Shown here: piece after piece, positions 5,596 to 19,891 of the stretch
Position numbering within the stretch: the stretch's first letter is position 1
How the letters are laid out: every line of letters starts with the position of its first letter
Virus record (IMG/VR): IMGVR_UViG_2711768033_000002
Origin: a virus
Taxonomy: Duplodnaviria; Heunggongvirae; Uroviricota; Caudoviricetes
DNA: 24,790 nucleotides
Reading direction: 5' to 3' (one strand)
Translations under genes and position numbers: made by a program
Notes under the pieces: model-generated
The model's database searches: none
What the model was told of the DNA's origin: nothing
Seen by the model: the letters and a program-made list of their open reading frames with translations, nothing else

Positions 5596-5933
5596 CAGAT
5601 CACCACTTCGTCAAACTGACACGAAAAATCGGTATAGGTGATATGTTCTGTCGCTGACCACGTTCGACACACCACTCTGATTTTTCTGTTAATACCCGGC
5701 GGGCGCCAAAAAAAAGATTTATAGCCTTCATGCCGGGCTAAAAATTTTTCAAATGAATCACGTTCATTCGCCTCAACTTTGAAATCACAGGTGAAAACGC
5801 GCAGAGAATGATTAAGTCCATTTGGACTTCGTTGCTCATAACCATCGCCAAATCTTACAGTTTTTATCGATGGTTTATTTTCTGTTTTCATTCCATCCTC
5901 TGGTAACCAGTGAAATTCTTCCGTATTAGCCAC
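5595..5933 (-). CDS. M: Minor tail protein M homolog (diverged from lambda gpM)
   Basis: 112 aa; [10 protein letters not shown] and C-terminal FDEVVI resemble lambda M (VRFGDGYSQR...FEQVVN); GTG start at 5931-5933 overlapping the tape-measure stop; an alternative ATG start is at 5889-5891. Confidence 0.78.
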
Positions 5934-8900
5934 TTAACATTCCCCCATCACGTCGCATATTTAACAGATTGCCCTGCACCCGCTGATCAACCATCCCCAT
6001 AAGTGCTTTTATTGCCTGAGGGCCAATCTCTCCATTCTGGCCGTCATTTTGAATAGTGATTTGGTATACAGGGGCATAGGTAATATCTCCGCCTCCATTA
6101 CCACTTTTACTATTAATAGCTCTGACACCAAGAGAACCATCGGAAGTTCGTGTTAATGGCATAATGGCTTCCGGTCCAGCCTCACCAAAAACACCAGCCC
6201 CTTTTGCAAAAGCAAAAAATTGCGGGGAATCATAAATACCGTTCGAATACGTGCTCAATGACGGAGACTCATAAACACCGCCCTTTGCATTCGGAATAAA
6301 TTTACTAATAGCACTCCCGATAGTTCCTAAAATCCCCCCAGAAGAACTGTTACTAATGCTGTCGAAAATCCCAGTAATTGAAGCCTTTAATGCTATTCGA
6401 CTAAGATCCGAAATCACGGAAGTAGCGAAAGAACGAAAATTTGCCTTGCCTGTCGTGACAAAATCACCCAGCGCATCGGTCATCCCATCAAACATCTGAG
6501 TCGTGGTTGATTTTATCTGCTCACTGATATCCTTAGTGTCATCCAGCCAGTTATTGAATCCCTGGGAGGCACCACTAACCCAGTCTCCTGCCTGAATATC
6601 GAGCTGCTCGTTTTTCTGTCTGACAATTTCTTTTTCCCGTTCCAGAGCATCATTCAGAGCCTGCATTTTCTCTTGAAAAACATGATCTGACATTCCACGG
6701 GATTTATCTGCATAGTCACGTTCAAGTTGCAGACGCTGATTGTTATATCCATGTTCAATCCGCAGTAATTCCTGCTGGCGTTGCTGATTTTTATCGCCAA
6801 CCCCATAACCAGCAATCTGAATATCATACCCCTGCTGACGATTATCAATCGAAGCCTGCAATGAATCACGCCATGCTGTTATTTCGGCGGATTCCTTGAT
6901 TAGCCTGTTATTTTTTTCAATCGCAACATTTTTCTCCATCAACGTGGTTATTTCTTCCCGGTGTAAGAGAAGCGATTTCTGATCCTGGGTTAATTTCGAT
7001 GATGGTCGTGACTCTAGGTCGGCAATCCGCTGACGCCACTTAACCAGTTCCTGTTCAGAGGAACTTAATTTAACGGTCAACTCAGCTTGTGAACTTAGTA
7101 ACGCATTCTGTTGATTCAGATGATCAATCATTCGTTGGGCTGCATCATCAGAATAATCTTTCGCCTTTGGTTGCTTTGGATCTTTATAACGCTCATTTAT
7201 TTGAGCGATAAGATTATTATATTCTTCCTTTGAATACTGATTCTTTAGCTTTTCCAGTTTTGCAAGTTCACTAGCTCTCTGCTGCTCCCGGGTCTGATAT
7301 TGTTTTGAAAAGGCATCTGCTCTCTGTCTGAGTTCAATTCCTTCCTGTTGTCGCTTGTTGTAATCGTTTATTGATGAATTTAGTACGTCCTGAGCAATTT
7401 TTTCTGCTTGAAGTACGCCCAATTGCTGCTTTAATCGTGCCAGCCTTTTATTTTGAGCTCCGCCATCTCCAATGCCACCTAACCCGAAAACTCCGGATCG
7501 GGTATTTTTTTCTATTTCATCAATTTGACGGAGAACATCTGAGATTTTTTGATCAAGGGAGGCCTCACGGCCAATATCCAGCATGGAATCCCATGCCCAT
7601 TTTGCGGAGTCTGCGACAGCTTTCCATGCAGTCTCAAGATAACCAAGATTTTCTTTAATCTGGTTGGTGCGCTGGATCATTGAGGATGAGTATTCTTCTG
7701 TCGCAATGCGGGCGGCCTCCTGCTGGTTCCCTTCATCCTGTAGCGCCTTAATCTGGTTATAAGTCGCAAGTGTCAGAAAATGGTACTGATCATTAAGTTT
7801 TGATATGGCACTGACAGGATCCTTTGCAATTTCATTGAAGTCATTAACCAGTTGTTCGGTTGATATTCCTGTTACTTCGCTCGTTTTTACTATCGCTGTC
7901 GTCACTTGCTCCAGCGAACTGCTCGCTACCTTTCCCGAACGCACAAGCTGATTTAATACTGCCGCCGCAGCACCAGTTGTCGAATCAGCCGCATTCCCGG
8001 CACGTTGAGCTAAATCGCCCAATTGCCCGCTGGTTGTCCCCAACTGATTTCCGGTAAGAATAAGAGATTTATTAAATTCGTCCTGCTCCTGAGAGCCTTT
8101 ATAGTAAGCCAGTCCTAAGACCCCAACGGCTGCTGCGGCCAGGGTAAAAGGATTAATTAATCCCAGCACATAAGAACCTACCCCTTTGATCGCCGGGCCA
8201 ATCCCACCGAACATATCTTTTAGCTGGCCGCCCTGCTGCATTAACACCATAAATGGCGACTGACCAGTGGACAACCCAACAACAATATCCGTCATTTGTG
8301 CAGGCAACATGCGCATAGCAAAAGCCGTTTGTTTTGCCGACATTCCGGTTTTGCTTAATTGTGATTGAGTAACCTCAAGCTCACTCCGCATAGCACGAAG
8401 TTTTCCAGAAAGCTCCTCATACATTTCAGGAGAAAGCATCCCCTTAGCTTTTGCTTCATTGAGCTGTTTCTGTTGTTCTACCAGACGATTAAAAGCAGTT
8501 CCGACAGGATCAAGTTGAGCAATCAGACGTTGCAAAGCAACAACCTGTTCATCATGCGCTTTTGCTGCTTCTCGCTCTGCCTGAGCCTCTCCGGTAAGCT
8601 CTCGCCGTGTTTCCTGTATTTTTCGGCTATAATTCTCAAACTGAGAACCATTTATTTTCCCGGATGCAAACGCAGCATTAAGTTCATCATGCTGTTGTTC
8701 AAGATTTCTTAGCGCCGCAGCCAGAGGGTCGATCTTGTCCAGCATTCTTTGAAAGGCCTGAGCCTGCGCTTCCTGCTGGGCGGCAGCAAGTTTTCCGGCC
8801 TTCTCGGCTTCTCTCTGCGCTTGCGCAACCCCGCTCAATTCCTCTGTGGTTTCATTAAGTTTACGGACAAGAAATTCATATTCTTCTTTATCAATAAGCC

Positions 8901-9159
8901 CTTTATCGAAAAATTTCTTTAATTCAGAATAGCGTCGACCGACAGTATCAATTGCGGCACCAACTGGATCAATAGCTGCTTTTAATTTTGCGAGCGCGTT
9001 CTTCTCATCTTCTGTTGCCTTAGTCACTTTCCCTGCGCTATTTGCAGCAGTTTCCCCAGCCTGCGTCATTTTGACTAATGAGGAGGTCAGATTGTCAGCA
9101 TTATTTTTCGCTCCAGTGCTATCAATAATTATTGCGAGACGCGAGGTTTGCTCTGCCAT
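5926..9159 (-). CDS. Tail tape measure protein
   Basis: 1077 aa; coiled-coil-rich N-terminal half, hydrophobic Gly-rich segment ([18 protein letters not shown]), position between G/GT and M; ATG 9157-9159 preceded by AGGAG; TAA 5926-5928. Confidence 0.9.
8365..8980 (-). repeat. Three diverged tandem repeats of about 65 aa inside the tape measure N-terminal region
   Basis: Translation shows [20 protein letters not shown]...EELSG / [20 protein letters not shown]...RELTG / [20 protein letters not shown]...SELE; DNA coordinates are approximate. Confidence 0.5.
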
Positions 9160-9171
9160 TTATTAAAACTC

Positions 9172-9204
9172 CTGACAACAAAAAACCCACCGCGAAGTGG
9201 GTTT
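9172..9204 (-). terminator. Terminator-like hairpin just upstream of the tape measure gene
   Basis: Plus 9183-9190 aaacccac / loop cgcgaa / 9197-9204 gtgggttt; on the minus strand followed by TTTTTTGTTGT, then AGGAG and the tape-measure ATG. Confidence 0.45.
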
Positions 9205-9324
9205 CAGGCGACATAATAGTAGATATAGCGATTACGAGGCCACGCAATGCTTTTCTCCAGGAGCATCATCGATTTAATTAAAGACACCATCACATCTCTG
9301 TAACAGAGTGTACGTAATTAACAA

Positions 9325-10094
9325 CTACACACACTGCTCCTGAAAATACTGGTCATCCAGTGCAAAGATCACTGCTTCAAATTCATCGCGCTCAATCAAT
9401 ACCGGATGAGTGGCTAAATATTCATTTATCTCTGTCAGAGATAAAGGCAAAGGCACCCCAGCCATTCCAGCATAACGTCGGGCACGGGATATTACCGAAT
9501 AGGCGTACAACAACTCCTTAAGCACCGGGTCTATTTCTGGTTCCGGTATCGGTGGCAACCTGAGTTTTTCTCGCTTCCATCTTGCCTTTTCCCCCCTTTC
9601 TCCCCCGAACTCCGATAACCACCGCTGGGCAGCTATGGCTTTTTTATCGTATCCTGCTTCTGCTGCTCTTTACCCTGGGCGATGCTGGCTGCTTCTGCAA
9701 GGATCTGCCAGTACAACTCTGGATTCTGCTTAAGCAGCGCGATCCCTCGTTCTGCCGTATATTCCAGTGCAACCTCAACACCATTAACCAGTTCACCAAC
9801 CCCTTTCCAGTCTTTCAGCAGATAACGAGCGGCATTATCAATGAGTAAATCATCAACAGAATCCACCTCGGAAACCTTTGAAATATCAAACTCCTTCGTT
9901 CCGACGTGCAAACTGGCATCCATTTTCTCAATGTGGCGACGGATTAATGCATTACGGGAGCGATACTGATCGTTATCGCTGCTTGCCACCAACAGTTTTA
10001 ACCCGTCTACAGGTTTTAAGTCCTTCATTGGCGTAAACCAGCGTTCTCCACCAATGATAATTTTCTGATTAAGAATAAACATCCATAACCTCAT
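9325..10094 (-). CDS. Tail assembly chaperone GT-like fusion made by -1 programmed ribosomal frameshift
   Basis: The -1 frame is open from the slippery site (AIAAQRWLSEFGGERGEKARWKREKLRLPPIPEP...) to TAG at 9325-9327; the downstream ORF has no ATG of its own (track start is TTG). Confidence 0.8.
9633..10094 (-). CDS. Tail assembly chaperone (gpG-like), unshifted product
   Basis: 153 aa ORF between the major tail and tape measure genes; ends ...DTIKKP with TAG at 9633-9635. Confidence 0.85.
   Translation of the reverse strand: MRLWMFILNQKIIIGGERWFTPMKDLKPVDGLKLLVASSDNDQYRSRNALIRRHIEKMDASLHVGTKEFDISKVSEVDSVDDLLIDNAARYLLKDWKGVGELVNGVEVALEYTAERGIALLKQNPELYWQILAEAASIAQGKEQQKQDTIKKP
9639..9645 (-). 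promoter_or_regulatory. Slippery heptamer A AAA AAG for the G/GT -1 frameshift
   Basis: Minus-strand ACG ATA AAA AAG CCA TAG; the heptamer sits 2 codons before the gpG-like stop. Confidence 0.8.
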
Positions 10095-10142: not shown

Positions 10143-11105
10143 TCAACTAATCGCCTCAGCACTGGCTTTTGCGATCACGGCAGCCGGGGAATTTTTTTTT
10201 CTGGTTATCGTAGGTGCTTCATCTGCTGCGGTAATGCTCAATTGAACCTGGATAATGTCGCTATTACCCCCATCAGGCCATTCACCTGACACCTGAACCT
10301 TCGGGAAACTGAAAGTGTATGCCCCCTCTCCATTCGAAAGCGTGAAGCTGAACGGAACTGTTTCTCCAGTCAGTGTTTTACTCCAGATTTCCCACGCGGC
10401 TTTAGACCATGAAAGCGTCACCGTACCGGACGGTGTAAAAGTAGTCGGAATATTTGCTCCTGCATAAGGCGAGCCAGTCCCGATACAACGCTGTGTCTGG
10501 AGTTTGTTATCGAACTGAATATCAAAACTGTCGATACAAAAACCGTTACCTCCGGCAACACCATTCAGGCTTACTGCTGAAACCTCCTTAAACGAATAAC
10601 GTAGCTTTCCTGCACTATCCACAGGTTCGCCTTTGATAAAATTCGTATCATCGGCCTTTGATTCCCAGTCCAGTCCGGCAAAGGTTACGGTCGCTGTAAT
10701 ATCGCCGTCGTTAGGGATCTGCATTTTCCATGAGCCAACCTGCGCTCCTCTGACGACAGAGGCAATTCCGACATCGGACGCATAGGTCGCCAGAGAAAAT
10801 GTTATTCGCTCATTCCCCATTGTCAGAGAATCGCCTGACCATTCCGCGCCGAAACAGGATGCAAGAAAATCATCATGTTGACCCCAGCGAAATTTGGTAC
10901 CAACATCACCGCCGACATCCACAGTGCCAGGCGTCGCCCCCTGAGCCATCCGGGAGCCACCAATCTCATTATTTTCGCCTTTATTCTGGGTGGGTTTTAC
11001 TCCCCAGCTTGTGCGTTTTAATAAACTCCAGTCACCACTTGCTGGCGTAGTGCCTGCAACCGTCTCCCGGATAAATGCCGAGATAACCTTTGCACCTGAA
11101 CTCAC
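10143..11105 (-). CDS. Major tail (tube) protein
   Basis: 320 aa, Gly/Thr/Ser-rich, immediately upstream of the G/GT chaperones; GTG start 11103-11105 preceded by GGAGG with 5-nt spacing and an in-frame TAG just upstream. Confidence 0.8.
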   Translation of the reverse strand: MSSGAKVISAFIRETVAGTTPASGDWSLLKRTSWGVKPTQNKGENNEIGGSRMAQGATPGTVDVGGDVGTKFRWGQHDDFLASCFGAEWSGDSLTMGNERITFSLATYASDVGIASVVRGAQVGSWKMQIPNDGDITATVTFAGLDWESKADDTNFIKGEPVDSAGKLRYSFKEVSAVSLNGVAGGNGFCIDSFDIQFDNKLQTQRCIGTGSPYAGANIPTTFTPSGTVTLSWSKAAWEIWSKTLTGETVPFSFTLSNGEGAYTFSFPKVQVSGEWPDGGNSDIIQVQLSITAADEAPTITRKKNSPAAVIAKASAEAIS

Positions 11106-11901: not shown

Positions 11902-12285
11902 TTACGCTCTCCTTAACTGGATAGAGTAAACTGATGCGGAAGGATCTACACTTGCTGTAATTACCTCGTATCGTTGTAACTGCCTTGATACAGGATCATA
12001 AATCTCAATAATATGGTCGACAGCTGGTTTATCCGTAACCTCGCATACCAGAGCGGTTAATTTAAGGTCACCATGCAAAATATTAATCCCATCAATTCTG
12101 CCCAGCTTATAACGTGTCAACACGCCTCGCCCGGTATAGATTGCGGTGGATTCGCCGCCAGTTTCCGTCACAGGATCCCAGTGCCGGTGCGTAACGTAAG
12201 AACCAGAAAAATCACTCACGGCGTCCGCTAAATCCTCATCAAAAGCAGCGGCAACCTCTGACTGAATCTCTTCACGAAGCCCCAT
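11902..12285 (-). CDS. Head-tail adaptor / head closure protein (neck)
   Basis: 127 aa ORF tightly packed between connector-like and gp10-like genes; assignment by synteny. Confidence 0.5.
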   Translation of the reverse strand: MGLREEIQSEVAAAFDEDLADAVSDFSGSYVTHRHWDPVTETGGESTAIYTGRGVLTRYKLGRIDGINILHGDLKLTALVCEVTDKPAVDHIIEIYDPVSRQLQRYEVITASVDPSASVYSIQLRRA

Positions 12286-12680
12286 TATCCCCCCCTCACA
12301 ACCCTGACTTGTGAGCGACTAAGTCCGTACGGTTTCAGCAGTGCTATCGCAAGCTGTAAATCGGGTTCAAGCAATGCAGTGCTGTTTGCTGGCAACTCAG
12401 AAAATGATTTCGATACACTGACCCCGTCAGCCGACACGGCTTTACTGATAACAACGCCAGAATCATTTTTCTGCTGAAACAACTTACCGAATGAGGCAAT
12501 TCTGGCTGCATATGCTCCCGCAAGTTTTACCTCTTCCGGAATACGGGATGGGTTAATTTTCAGGTTGAAGCCATTAAGCCAGGCATTAGCCATTAAAACA
12601 GCTTTATTTTTAGCGTTCTCACTCGTCCAGGCGTTCCCAAACGCATTATCAACGTCATCACAGGTCACGTAAGTGATCAT
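12285..12680 (-). CDS. Head-tail connector protein (gp6-like)
   Basis: 131 aa; first gene after the capsid terminator and small ORF; AGGAG-type RBS upstream of the ATG at 12678-12680. Confidence 0.55.
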   Translation of the reverse strand: MITYVTCDDVDNAFGNAWTSENAKNKAVLMANAWLNGFNLKINPSRIPEEVKLAGAYAARIASFGKLFQQKNDSGVVISKAVSADGVSVSKSFSELPANSTALLEPDLQLAIALLKPYGLSRSQVRVVRGG

Positions 12681-17514: not shown

Positions 17515-18816
17515 TTAAATCCGAAGTGATGTGACTCTTCCGGTCGGTTTGACAATAGGGAATTGCTTAACGATGAAATAACCTCCGGCATCATTCGGGT
17601 GATCATTGCCAGATTTTTTATCAGGCTCCCCCTTATCATCCCAGACCTGTTGCTCCAGAGATTCGGCATATACCGGACAACGCTTCACATTAACTTTATA
17701 GCGACGCTCACCATTGGCATTGCAGAACATTGCATTCATTGAGTTAACGCGATCTTTTACTGGCGGGTTCGAGCTGTTCACCACAACGTTAAAACCTGCC
17801 TGCTTAAGCTGGGCTATATCCGTCGTACTTGCGTTACTTGATTTTCTGGAATCTCCGGAAGCATCTGGATAAATATAAATCTCCCTCACTTTCCGGTAAT
17901 CATGCCCGTCATACAGCCAGAAGCGTTCTTTAATGAGGCGGATCATATCCGGCGTATCGTAGGCATTGATGATTTCAGTTACCGCACATGGAAGCCCCAA
18001 ACGCAGCACATGGACGATTCCCGCCATCTTTCCAACGTTAAAATCCATCCCAATATAAATCGGCTCCCCTGGCTGCTCCACTTCTTCGCAATTATTCAGT
18101 TTCCGGTCAAACTGATGGTAAACAGTACCACTTGTCAGGTTAGTAAACCGTCCTAGAAGATAGGCTTTAATCAGCTCTGGAGGGTATGATTCAAGAAGTG
18201 AAGGAATGTAATCTGCTGGCAGGTTCTTTTCATTATCGAAAGTAGATGCCTGCACCAGACCATACAGTGAGGCCAGCTCTGTTTTTTCACGCACGGCTTT
18301 AACAAACTGCTCGTAGACAAATTTGAATCCTTCCGGCGTGGTTGTAACGTCAATACCGTTGCGAAGTCCATCAATCTTATAACGCATACGCGCAATTATC
18401 TTGCGCCACGCCGTTCTGGCTTTTTCCTTCGGCAAAATGTCCAGTTCATCCACCAGCGCATTACCAATTTTGAAACCGACGATCGTTTGTGGCTTCTCCA
18501 TCGATCTGCAGATAGTGGTTCCCCGATACTGGCGTCCGTAATAAAAGTGAACCTCTTTATTTCCCTCATTAATTTTTACGTTCAATCCCCAGTCAGCAGC
18601 AACTTCTTCCACTGTAGGGTAAAAAATATCGCGAATTTGGGGATACGTTGGCGCAAAATATCCCTGATTTATACCTGGATGCGCCCAAATCCCCTTGCAT
18701 ATGCCGCCACACCCAACCCATGTTTTGCCCGAGCCAAAACCAGCAATATAGGCTTTAAATTTATGGGGCATTGAAAGAAATCGCGCCTGAGGCACATTAA
18801 GCGTCGGAGAGATCAT
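17515..18816 (-). CDS. Terminase large subunit
   Basis: Walker A AGFGSGKTW near the N-terminus; acidic motif IYIYPDASGDS in the C-terminal nuclease half; the ATG at 18814-18816 (MISPTLNV...) lies 8 nt after AAGGAG, while the track start at 18825 is GTG. Confidence 0.9.
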   Translation of the reverse strand: MISPTLNVPQARFLSMPHKFKAYIAGFGSGKTWVGCGGICKGIWAHPGINQGYFAPTYPQIRDIFYPTVEEVAADWGLNVKINEGNKEVHFYYGRQYRGTTICRSMEKPQTIVGFKIGNALVDELDILPKEKARTAWRKIIARMRYKIDGLRNGIDVTTTPEGFKFVYEQFVKAVREKTELASLYGLVQASTFDNEKNLPADYIPSLLESYPPELIKAYLLGRFTNLTSGTVYHQFDRKLNNCEEVEQPGEPIYIGMDFNVGKMAGIVHVLRLGLPCAVTEIINAYDTPDMIRLIKERFWLYDGHDYRKVREIYIYPDASGDSRKSSNASTTDIAQLKQAGFNVVVNSSNPPVKDRVNSMNAMFCNANGERRYKVNVKRCPVYAESLEQQVWDDKGEPDKKSGNDHPNDAGGYFIVKQFPIVKPTGRVTSLRI

Positions 18817-19891
18817 CTTCATCACTCCTTAATCTGGCATCAACCACATTAATATTGATCGCCACAGGCTGGGGATGTTCATTATCCTCCACCGTTTCGA
18901 TCTCTTTGCGCAGCTTCTGGTTCTCTATTCTGCGCCGTTCAATTTCCAGTTCCTGTAGCCGCTTATCTGCACATAATGCCCCGCCAGCAGAAAGCAAACG
19001 CAACAATTCACGCCGGGCGGCAGCCTTATCCTCCAGCAGGATCTCAACACCGTATTTTCCGAGCTTTGACCCTGCATATAATTGCCGCGCATCCCCATCA
19101 AGCAGTGTGGTATCAGCCATATAAAGCTGTCCTGTTCCCTCACCGCAGCACTTCGGGCAATCAGGATTGGGTATGGCGTTATCAACAAAGCCGAGGCCTC
19201 CATATTCCGGCTCGGGTTTACCATCTCTGGAGGCCTGTGCCGCAGCCTTATCGAATTCTGCAATATCACGCCACTGGTAGAGATGATTCTCGCCCCAGCA
19301 ATAACGGCAGTTAACACGGCGAAATTGTGCCAACTGATTGGGGTCGGCCTGGACAATGGCCATCAACTGGCTCACCAGTAAATCCAGGTCTGCGGTATAG
19401 CGTTTCTGGTACTGATTGCGGAAGTAGCTGATAGCACGATAAACCCTGGCATTTCTAAGCATACGGCTGGCGTTGCTGTTAGCTGTCGCACCTTGCCCCT
19501 CATAACCAGCCAGTCGGTATGCCTCTGTCGGCTTTTTCCCCTGAGCAACCAACATGGCGAATTTTGCCTGCTGGTCAGAAATACCGAATTCATCGGGGCA
19601 GAACGAAATTTCTTCCGTGTCCCCCTCAATCAGGAGTGCATCGGATACAGCCTTTTTTTTCTGAGATTTTCCGTTCTGCCTTTGCGCAGTCTGCGCAGTT
19701 TTTTTTCGCGCACTTTTTTGCGCAGTTTTGCGCATTTCTTTCTGCGCATTTTTCGGAGTTTTTTTGATGTAACGACGGGCTGTTGCGTAGTTCAGTCCCC
19801 TTGCTTCACACCATGCCACCGGAGATATACCGGAGCGGGTGTATTCAGCAATATACTCCTGCTGCAACGCCCCCCAGTCCGGTCTGCTCAT
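18797..19891 (-). CDS. Terminase small subunit (extended N-terminal HTH, basic linker, C-terminal Cys cluster)
   Basis: 364 aa; AKFAMLVAQGKKPTEAYRLAGYEGQGATANSNASRMLRNARVYRAI resembles the Terminase_2 HTH signature; additional N-terminal HTH-like segment; CRYC and CPKCC motifs; AGGA RBS 8 nt upstream of the ATG. Confidence 0.72.
   Translation of the reverse strand: MSRPDWGALQQEYIAEYTRSGISPVAWCEARGLNYATARRYIKKTPKNAQKEMRKTAQKSARKKTAQTAQRQNGKSQKKKAVSDALLIEGDTEEISFCPDEFGISDQQAKFAMLVAQGKKPTEAYRLAGYEGQGATANSNASRMLRNARVYRAISYFRNQYQKRYTADLDLLVSQLMAIVQADPNQLAQFRRVNCRYCWGENHLYQWRDIAEFDKAAAQASRDGKPEPEYGGLGFVDNAIPNPDCPKCCGEGTGQLYMADTTLLDGDARQLYAGSKLGKYGVEILLEDKAAARRELLRLLSAGGALCADKRLQELEIERRRIENQKLRKEIETVEDNEHPQPVAININVVDARLRSDEDDLSDA
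19683..19748. repeat. Array of palindromic TGCGCA hexamers separated by T-tracts, inside the 5' part of terS
   Basis: TGCGCA at 19683, 19692, 19719, 19729, 19743, plus CGCGCA at 19707; spacings 9-15 bp; intervening T5-T8 runs. Confidence 0.5.

Follow-up and report, generated by a model that had tools for sequence, protein, structure and literature searches.

A probable −1 ribosomal frameshift at the tail assembly chaperone locus (ydaY) of a Rac-type siphovirus prophage

Genes and reading frames at the locus

The DNA analyzed here, hereafter designated as the window, is a stretch of 24,790 nucleotides of a member of Caudoviricetes (IMG/VR record IMGVR_UViG_2711768033_000002). The surrounding prophage carries trkG and ynaK and is thus regarded as a Rac-type prophage, of which the head and tail module in the window is complete. 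On the minus strand, the gene encoding the tail tube protein is followed by two reading frames, termed G and T in this study, and then by the gene encoding the tape measure protein (Table 1). The stop codon of T and the tape measure gene are separated by a gap of 165 nt (9160-9324). A 1-kb region covering the locus is 100% identical to the corresponding region of Salmonella phage SPF_0923, which is an isolated phage, and the 1-kb segment was found at a coverage of at least 80% in 1059 of the 5426 complete Escherichia coli genomes.

The G protein matched PHROG 313, annotated as "tail assembly chaperone," with an E value of 4e-46. The profile of PHROG 313 spans 258 positions, and the T part showed a weak match to positions 173-246 of the same profile. 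When searched alone, T matched PHROG 1189, an entry of "unknown function," with an E value of 1.4e-36, and weak matches to Pfam Phage_TAC_18 were obtained for T in 15 out of 19 members. Neither the G part nor the T part matched any of the NCBIfam models, and a sequence search against PDB returned no match.

Table 1. Coordinates of the genes and sequence features at the G/T locus and its flanks in the window.
Feature	Positions	Strand	Description
Tail tube (major tail) protein gene	10143..11105	−	Upstream neighbor; Pfam Phage_tube_2, E 9e-32
Upstream in-frame ATG	10083..10094	−	MRLW extension, not conserved
G, G-like tail assembly chaperone ORF	9633..10082	−	149 aa + stop; PHROG 313 match
Last −1-frame stop (TAA) before the junction	9670..9672	−	
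Shine-Dalgarno-like AGGA	9652..9655	−	6 nt before the heptamer
Slippery heptamer A AAA AAG	9639..9645	−	X XXY YYZ phase; predicted −1 shift site, base 9639 read twice
0-frame stop (TAG) of G	9633..9635	−	Second codon past the heptamer
Weak hairpin	9612..9638	−	Directly after the heptamer; about −11 kcal/mol
T extension	9325..9639	−	104 −1-frame codons + stop TAG 9327-9325
Terminator-like hairpin	9182..9205	−	UUCG loop + U-run; within the 165-nt gap (9160-9324)
Tape measure protein gene	5926..9159	−	Downstream neighbor; Pfam TMP_2, E 1.6e-81; Tape_meas_lam_C

The 3' end of G reads ...CAG GAT ACG ATA AAA AAG CCA TAG on the minus strand, and the first A of the heptamer (9645) occupies codon position 3 of the G frame, as tandem slippage of tRNAs requires. 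The first-pass annotation of this DNA, made from the sequence alone, had proposed an A AAA AAG heptamer at 9639-9645 close to the stop codon of a gpG-like gene, with the −1 frame open from the heptamer onward. All of these points were reproduced: the heptamer is present and in the X XXY YYZ phase, the TAG at 9635-9633 is the second codon past it, and the −1 frame is open over 104 codons to the TAG at 9327-9325. The G and T frames can be joined only in the 34 nt between the TAA at 9672-9670 and the TAG at 9635-9633, and A AAA AAG is the sole canonical heptamer in this overlap. The third codon base needed by the heptamer comes here from ATA, the codon before the Lys pair, which E. coli uses rarely for Ile. 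Among the relatives compared, the codon preceding the Lys pair has the third base needed in every case.

After the junction, the 104 open codons of T begin with AIAAQRWLSEFGGE... The predicted GT junction reads ...DTIKK-AIAAQRW..., with ...QDTIKKAIAAQR as the sequence spanning it. The start-type codons found in T are TTG 9558 (codon 28), GTG 9525 (codon 39), and ATG 9465-9463 (codon 59). There is no start codon of any kind in codons 1-27, and the stretch encoding WLSEFGGER lies in the T frame ahead of any start codon. The earlier statement that T has no ATG of its own is therefore inaccurate in the literal sense, as there is an ATG at codon 59, but it stands for the first 27 codons, in which no start codon occurs. 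The 77-aa ORF mentioned in the same annotation turned out to be a mechanical ORF call beginning with TTG.

Two in-frame ATG codons, at 10094 and 10082, are available at the 5' end of G. The G homologues all begin with M-[FIL]-I-[IL], and this motif is aligned with ATG 10082 (MFILNQ...) in the window. One of the relatives (L063) has a TAG between the two ATG codons. A Shine-Dalgarno sequence, GAGG, is located 6 nt upstream of ATG 10082, and GAGG or GGAG is kept 6-8 nt before the second ATG in the relatives. Altogether, G probably starts at ATG 10082 and not at ATG 10094. With the start at ATG 10082, the predicted products are G of 149 aa (16.9 kDa) and GT of 252 aa (28.7 kDa), and the size of about 256 aa given earlier for the fusion, which corresponds to the start at ATG 10094, needs to be corrected accordingly.

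Conservation of the slip site and coding constraint in the −1 frame

Viral and genome collections were searched for related loci, and the 97 loci obtained represented 58 distinct sequences from Escherichia to Tatumella with G identities of 47-100%. At the homologous codons, the 58 distinct relatives carry either A AAA AAG or G GGA AAG, the latter being the heptamer of phage lambda, in phase, with the single exception of a Pectobacterium odoriferum prophage (L093). G GGA AAG replaces A AAA AAG in Raoultella, Serratia, Pantoea, and Tatumella. The 0-frame stop is found 0, 1, 7, 25, or 35 codons past the heptamer across the relatives, and the −1 ORF is open over 100-124 codons. Given this spread over 0-35 codons, the 0-frame stop is not a conserved signal. 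The two-frame layout is kept in Pseudomonas syringae phages (32% identity) and Acinetobacter phages as well. Non-canonical slip sites were found in L093 (G GGG AAG), Erwinia phage Gungnir39 (C GCA AAG, directly followed by TAA), and Pseudomonas phage Aurca01 (G GAA AAG); as predicted from their sequences, these three sites allow single-tRNA slippage only.

The codons between the junction and the first possible start codon of T bear the signature of a protein-coding sequence. In a codon alignment of 15 sequences, the mean pairwise differences at codon positions 1, 2, and 3 of T codons 1-27 were 0.25, 0.23, and 0.53, respectively. The same pattern rich in position-3 changes was observed in the rest of T, and from its first codon on, the variation at position 3 is more than double that at positions 1 and 2. 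The Nei-Gojobori dN/dS of T codons 1-27 was 0.07-0.12 in the −1 frame as compared with 0.6-3 in the other two frames. These values indicate that purifying selection acts on T codons 1-27 in the −1 frame and in neither of the other two. Codons 1-27 are thus devoid of start codons and yet constrained, and we therefore conclude that translation of the −1 frame begins at the heptamer.

T is truncated in 3 of the 97 loci. A G-rich and homopolymer-rich stretch, GGGGGAGAAAGGGGGGAAAAGG, is located inside T (9583-9606, minus strand), and a frame change in this stretch truncates T in several database entries and in one of the loci (L040). Such frame changes reflect errors of sequencing or else sites that are truly prone to indels. 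The sequence GCAGAAGCAG occurs as a direct repeat at 9689-9698 and 9654-9663 on the minus strand, the two copies being 35 nt apart. In the 240-aa protein of E. coli NB16F79 (P0001), a 35-nt deletion between the GCAGAAGCAG repeats has generated a natural in-frame fusion of G and T, which would give GT only and no free G. In another deletion derivative (P0123), found on 11 contigs, residues 1-27 of G are followed by the C-terminal part of T.

The bare A AAA AAG heptamer is not enriched in the window, in which 9 copies were found against 5.9 expected. When only the sites in phase are considered, there are 33 X XXY YYZ sites in 25 ORFs, and just one of them, besides the G/T site, enters a long −1 ORF; the −1 ORFs entered from the remaining sites are of 0-33 codons. 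By rough estimates, the chance that one of the three best E. coli heptamers occurs in phase within an 11-codon window is ~0.002, and that of 104 codons without a stop is ~0.007.

The one other site entering a long −1 ORF is G GGG GGA at 12288-12294 (minus strand), which is in phase at the end of the ORF 12680..12285 and has a 128-codon −1 ORF beyond it. We rejected this site as a candidate for frameshifting, since it belongs to an ordinary ATGA stop/start overlap, in which the next gene has its own ATG and the G-run is the ribosome binding site of that gene. Two efficient in-phase heptamers were noted inside long genes elsewhere on the minus strand, namely G GGA AAG at 7930-7936 inside the tape measure gene, with a −1 ORF of 28 codons, and A AAA AAG at 19652-19658 inside the ORF 19891..18797, with a −1 ORF of 8 codons. 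Both of them are probably unselected.

Proposed mechanism, alternative explanations, and candidate regulatory elements

The reading of this locus as a G/GT-type −1 frameshift, which had already been put forward in the first-pass annotation, is upheld by the synteny, the conserved in-phase heptamer, and the homology of T to the frameshift extension of Acinetobacter phage TRS1 (see below for the details). We propose, with a probability of about 0.92, that a −1 ribosomal frameshift occurs at the tail assembly chaperone locus of this Rac-type siphovirus prophage and that G is accompanied by a 252-aa GT protein. The G-T mechanism in general has been described previously (PMC5009743). From the arrangement, the conservation, and the −1-frame coding from the junction observed here, we infer that ribosomes slip at the heptamer in the following manner. 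Most ribosomes would translate G and terminate at the TAG at 9635-9633, and a small fraction would slip back by one base with AAA AAG (9644-9639) in the P and A sites, the tRNA-Lys re-pairing with AAA AAA. After the slip, 104 more codons would be read in the −1 frame to yield GT as the minor fusion product, presumably at an efficiency of roughly 0.3-5%, and T would be expressed solely as the C-terminal portion of GT. By analogy with lambda gpG/gpGT (PMC5009743), the G part may allow both products to coat the tape measure protein and the rare T part may recruit the tube protein, with neither G nor GT ending up in the virion.

We regard it as very improbable that T is a separate small gene which is translated without any frameshift, from a start of its own (TTG 9558, GTG 9525, or ATG 9465) or by reinitiation past the stop codon of G. 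In-frame TTG, GTG, and ATG codons do exist in T, and gene callers place short T genes of 61-66 aa here and of 60-138 aa in the homologues. However, the starts called in this way differ arbitrarily among genomes, and TTG 9558 is not conserved, the relatives reading KLKLPP, KLGLPA, or KKPVPP. The protein sequence encoded by the 27 codons ahead of the first start is conserved, and purifying selection acts on these codons in the T frame alone. Likewise, the stop codon of G is located 0-35 codons from the junction, and thus there is no fixed geometry for the coupling of termination and reinitiation.

An equally small probability is assigned to the slippage of RNA polymerase on the A6 run, by which one A would be deleted in the mRNA and the fusion protein would be made by normal translation. 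The site indeed contains a run of six A, and other phage and IS genes make use of transcriptional slippage (PMC5009743). Nevertheless, there are relatives that have GGGAAAG, with three A only, at the same codon and with the same outcome, and the heptamer is strictly conserved in its phase, a feature of importance for the re-pairing of tRNA and not for the polymerase. In addition, appreciable slippage of E. coli RNA polymerase needs runs of ~8-9 or more, and this counts against a transcriptional origin of the fusion. Decay or chance, with T being the remnant of a pseudogene and the heptamer being incidental, appears to be less probable still. Rac is cryptic in K-12, T is truncated in a few relatives, and the bare heptamer shows no enrichment in the window, all of which speak for this explanation. 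It is nonetheless difficult to reconcile with the complete head and tail module, the identity of the 1-kb query to an isolated phage, the conservation of T across genera with low dN/dS, and the recurrence of the arrangement in Pseudomonas and Acinetobacter phages.

As for the elements that might stimulate the proposed ribosomal frameshift, the weak hairpin directly after the heptamer was considered as a conserved 3' stimulator and was ruled out by shuffling, conservation, and RNAalifold. The sequence of 9612-9638 folds no better than shuffled sequences (z = +0.5 to +1.5), the hairpin is kept in close Escherichia relatives only, and RNAalifold across the G/T family yielded no consensus structure, with a value of only −1.8 kcal/mol. 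This hairpin is thus probably not a stimulator. The stop codon as a stimulator was ruled out by its spread over 0-35 codons from the heptamer. The AGGA upstream of the heptamer is present in most relatives and absent from two of them (L092 and L094). It is possible that AGGA acts as a weak stimulator, and it may equally reflect just the Gln/Lys-Asp/Glu codons encoded there.

The efficiencies measured in E. coli with no stimulator, the IS911 stimulators, and the IS3 stimulators were 0.29, 4.3, and 39%, respectively, for A AAA AAG, and 0.28, 3.8, and 43% for G GGA AAG (PMC4066793 Table S3), and thus hardly differ between the two heptamers. As no conserved stimulatory RNA structure was found, low-level, lambda-like frameshifting is probable at the G/T locus, and it probably depends mainly on the heptamer. 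The yield of GT could even be very low, because A_AAA_AAG without a stimulator reached no more than 0.29% in one reporter context and no conserved 3' structure was found.

A second hairpin, which resembles a terminator, precedes the tape measure gene. This hairpin, GAAACCCAC-UUCG-CGGUGGGUUUU, is followed by a U-run and is situated ~25 nt before the ATG of the tape measure gene, just ahead of its GGAG. Equivalent hairpins with a U-run, of which the stem sequences are unrelated to one another, precede the tape measure ATG by 20-25 nt in all of the 11 diverse relatives inspected, and their position is the same with 29 nt as with 1042 nt between T and the tape measure gene. In several relatives (L070, L048, L058, L080, L079, and L094), T and the hairpin are 485-1042 nt apart. 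The gap in L070 holds an ATG-initiated reading frame (MKAEIREVIG...), and the 165-nt gap in the window contains no such ORF. Judging from these layouts, the gap between T and the hairpin looks like a slot for moron insertion. We tentatively consider, although we regard it as rather unlikely, that stoichiometry is set at two levels, the frameshift fixing the G:GT ratio and the hairpin at 9205-9182 attenuating transcription before the tape measure gene. If true, the tape measure and tip proteins would be outnumbered by the tube protein and the chaperones, which would be produced in excess.

Annotation of ydaY and comparison with known systems

The first-pass annotation also anticipated that annotation pipelines would miss the fusion or call a spurious gene, and this is the case: PGAP and GenBank give a short "ydaY" together with either nothing or an arbitrary ORF of 61-66 aa. 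PGAP labels G as "ydaY" of 119 aa, of which the start is placed 30 codons late, even in intact prophages (RefSeq records L001 and L106). For T, PGAP gives nothing or a 66-aa hypothetical protein, and the phage record contains a 61-aa call. In the records of the Rac-type (ydaY) family examined, including those of enterobacterial phages, G is always "ydaY" or "hypothetical" and often 30 codons short, and T is missing or represented by an arbitrary short ORF. Our literature search for ydaY in combination with frameshift or tail found nothing relevant.

The ydaY gene of E. coli K-12 MG1655 (b1366, "putative uncharacterized protein") represents G with its N-terminal part truncated. The K-12 segment, NC_000913.3 1425621-1426288 (L107), belongs to a match to the window of 819 out of 820 bases, and contains the heptamer at 1425968-1425974 and an unannotated T ORF of 104 codons extending to 1426288. 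Recognition of the locus assigns a function to ydaY, which we regard as what remains of a tail assembly chaperone gene, and provides the correct gene model for engineering or classifying Rac-type prophages. The G/GT frameshift is a well-known kind of system, to which the locus contributes a member that had escaped annotation, and the value of the present analysis lies mainly in annotation. As both the G/GT frameshift and slippage at A AAA AAG are textbook matters, no new principle emerges.

A distant counterpart of the G/T locus is that of Acinetobacter phage vB_AbaS_TRS1 (TRS1_18/TRS1_19), in which the frameshift fusion is annotated as a joined CDS, TRS1_19 (NC_031098). T is homologous to the TRS1_19 extension (39% identity over residues 170-249, E value of 4e-6), and the two loci share the same two-frame layout. 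The G part of TRS1 was too diverged to be matched by tblastn. The junction in TRS1 is G GGA AAG, in contrast to A AAA AAG in the window, and its 0-frame stop is located 26 codons downstream. The TRS1 record annotates a rho-independent terminator just upstream of the next gene, TRS1_22, and extra genes lie between T and the terminator in TRS1, unlike in the window.

The same heptamer as that in the window is used in ECs1801, the chaperone of the prophage Sp9 of E. coli O157:H7 Sakai, which belongs to the cluster A_AAA_AAG_25 marked as "true" (PMC4066793 Table S4). Both are tail chaperones of E. coli prophages, with A AAA AAG beside the stop codon of G and the same gene order, whereas the stop follows the heptamer directly in ECs1801. 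ECs1801 was rejected as a homologue of G, as it belongs to an unrelated protein family and BLASTP yielded no alignment. A AAA AAG is thus an already validated slip site of a chaperone gene in an unrelated family. Outside phage tails, E. coli dnaX (tau/gamma) shares the same A AAA AAG and the same slippage of tRNA-Lys with the mechanism proposed here (PMC5009743). The two systems differ in that dnaX has a strong upstream Shine-Dalgarno sequence and a downstream stem-loop, whereas the G/T locus has no conserved stimulator. Moreover, dnaX shifts at a high efficiency to make a shorter product, and the product of the shift at the G/T locus is predicted to be longer.

The lambda gpG/gpGT pair, which arises by a −1 frameshift at G GGA AAG according to the summary of Levin 1993 and Xu 2013/2014 given in PMC5009743, is among the known systems closest to the G/T locus. 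As in lambda, the locus is positioned between the major tail and tape measure genes, with an in-phase heptamer near the 3' end of G, a −1 extension of ~100 aa, and no required RNA structure. The site in the window is A AAA AAG, while several members of the family use the exact heptamer of lambda. In the window, T and the tape measure gene are separated by 165 nt that contain the terminator-like hairpin, whereas T and H overlap in lambda. In the comparison by hhalign, no homology was detected between G and T of the window and those of lambda (probability of 0.1-0.2%). Judging from these comparisons of sequence and layout, we regard the locus as analogous to lambda G/GT in position and mechanism, rather than as a member of the same sequence family.
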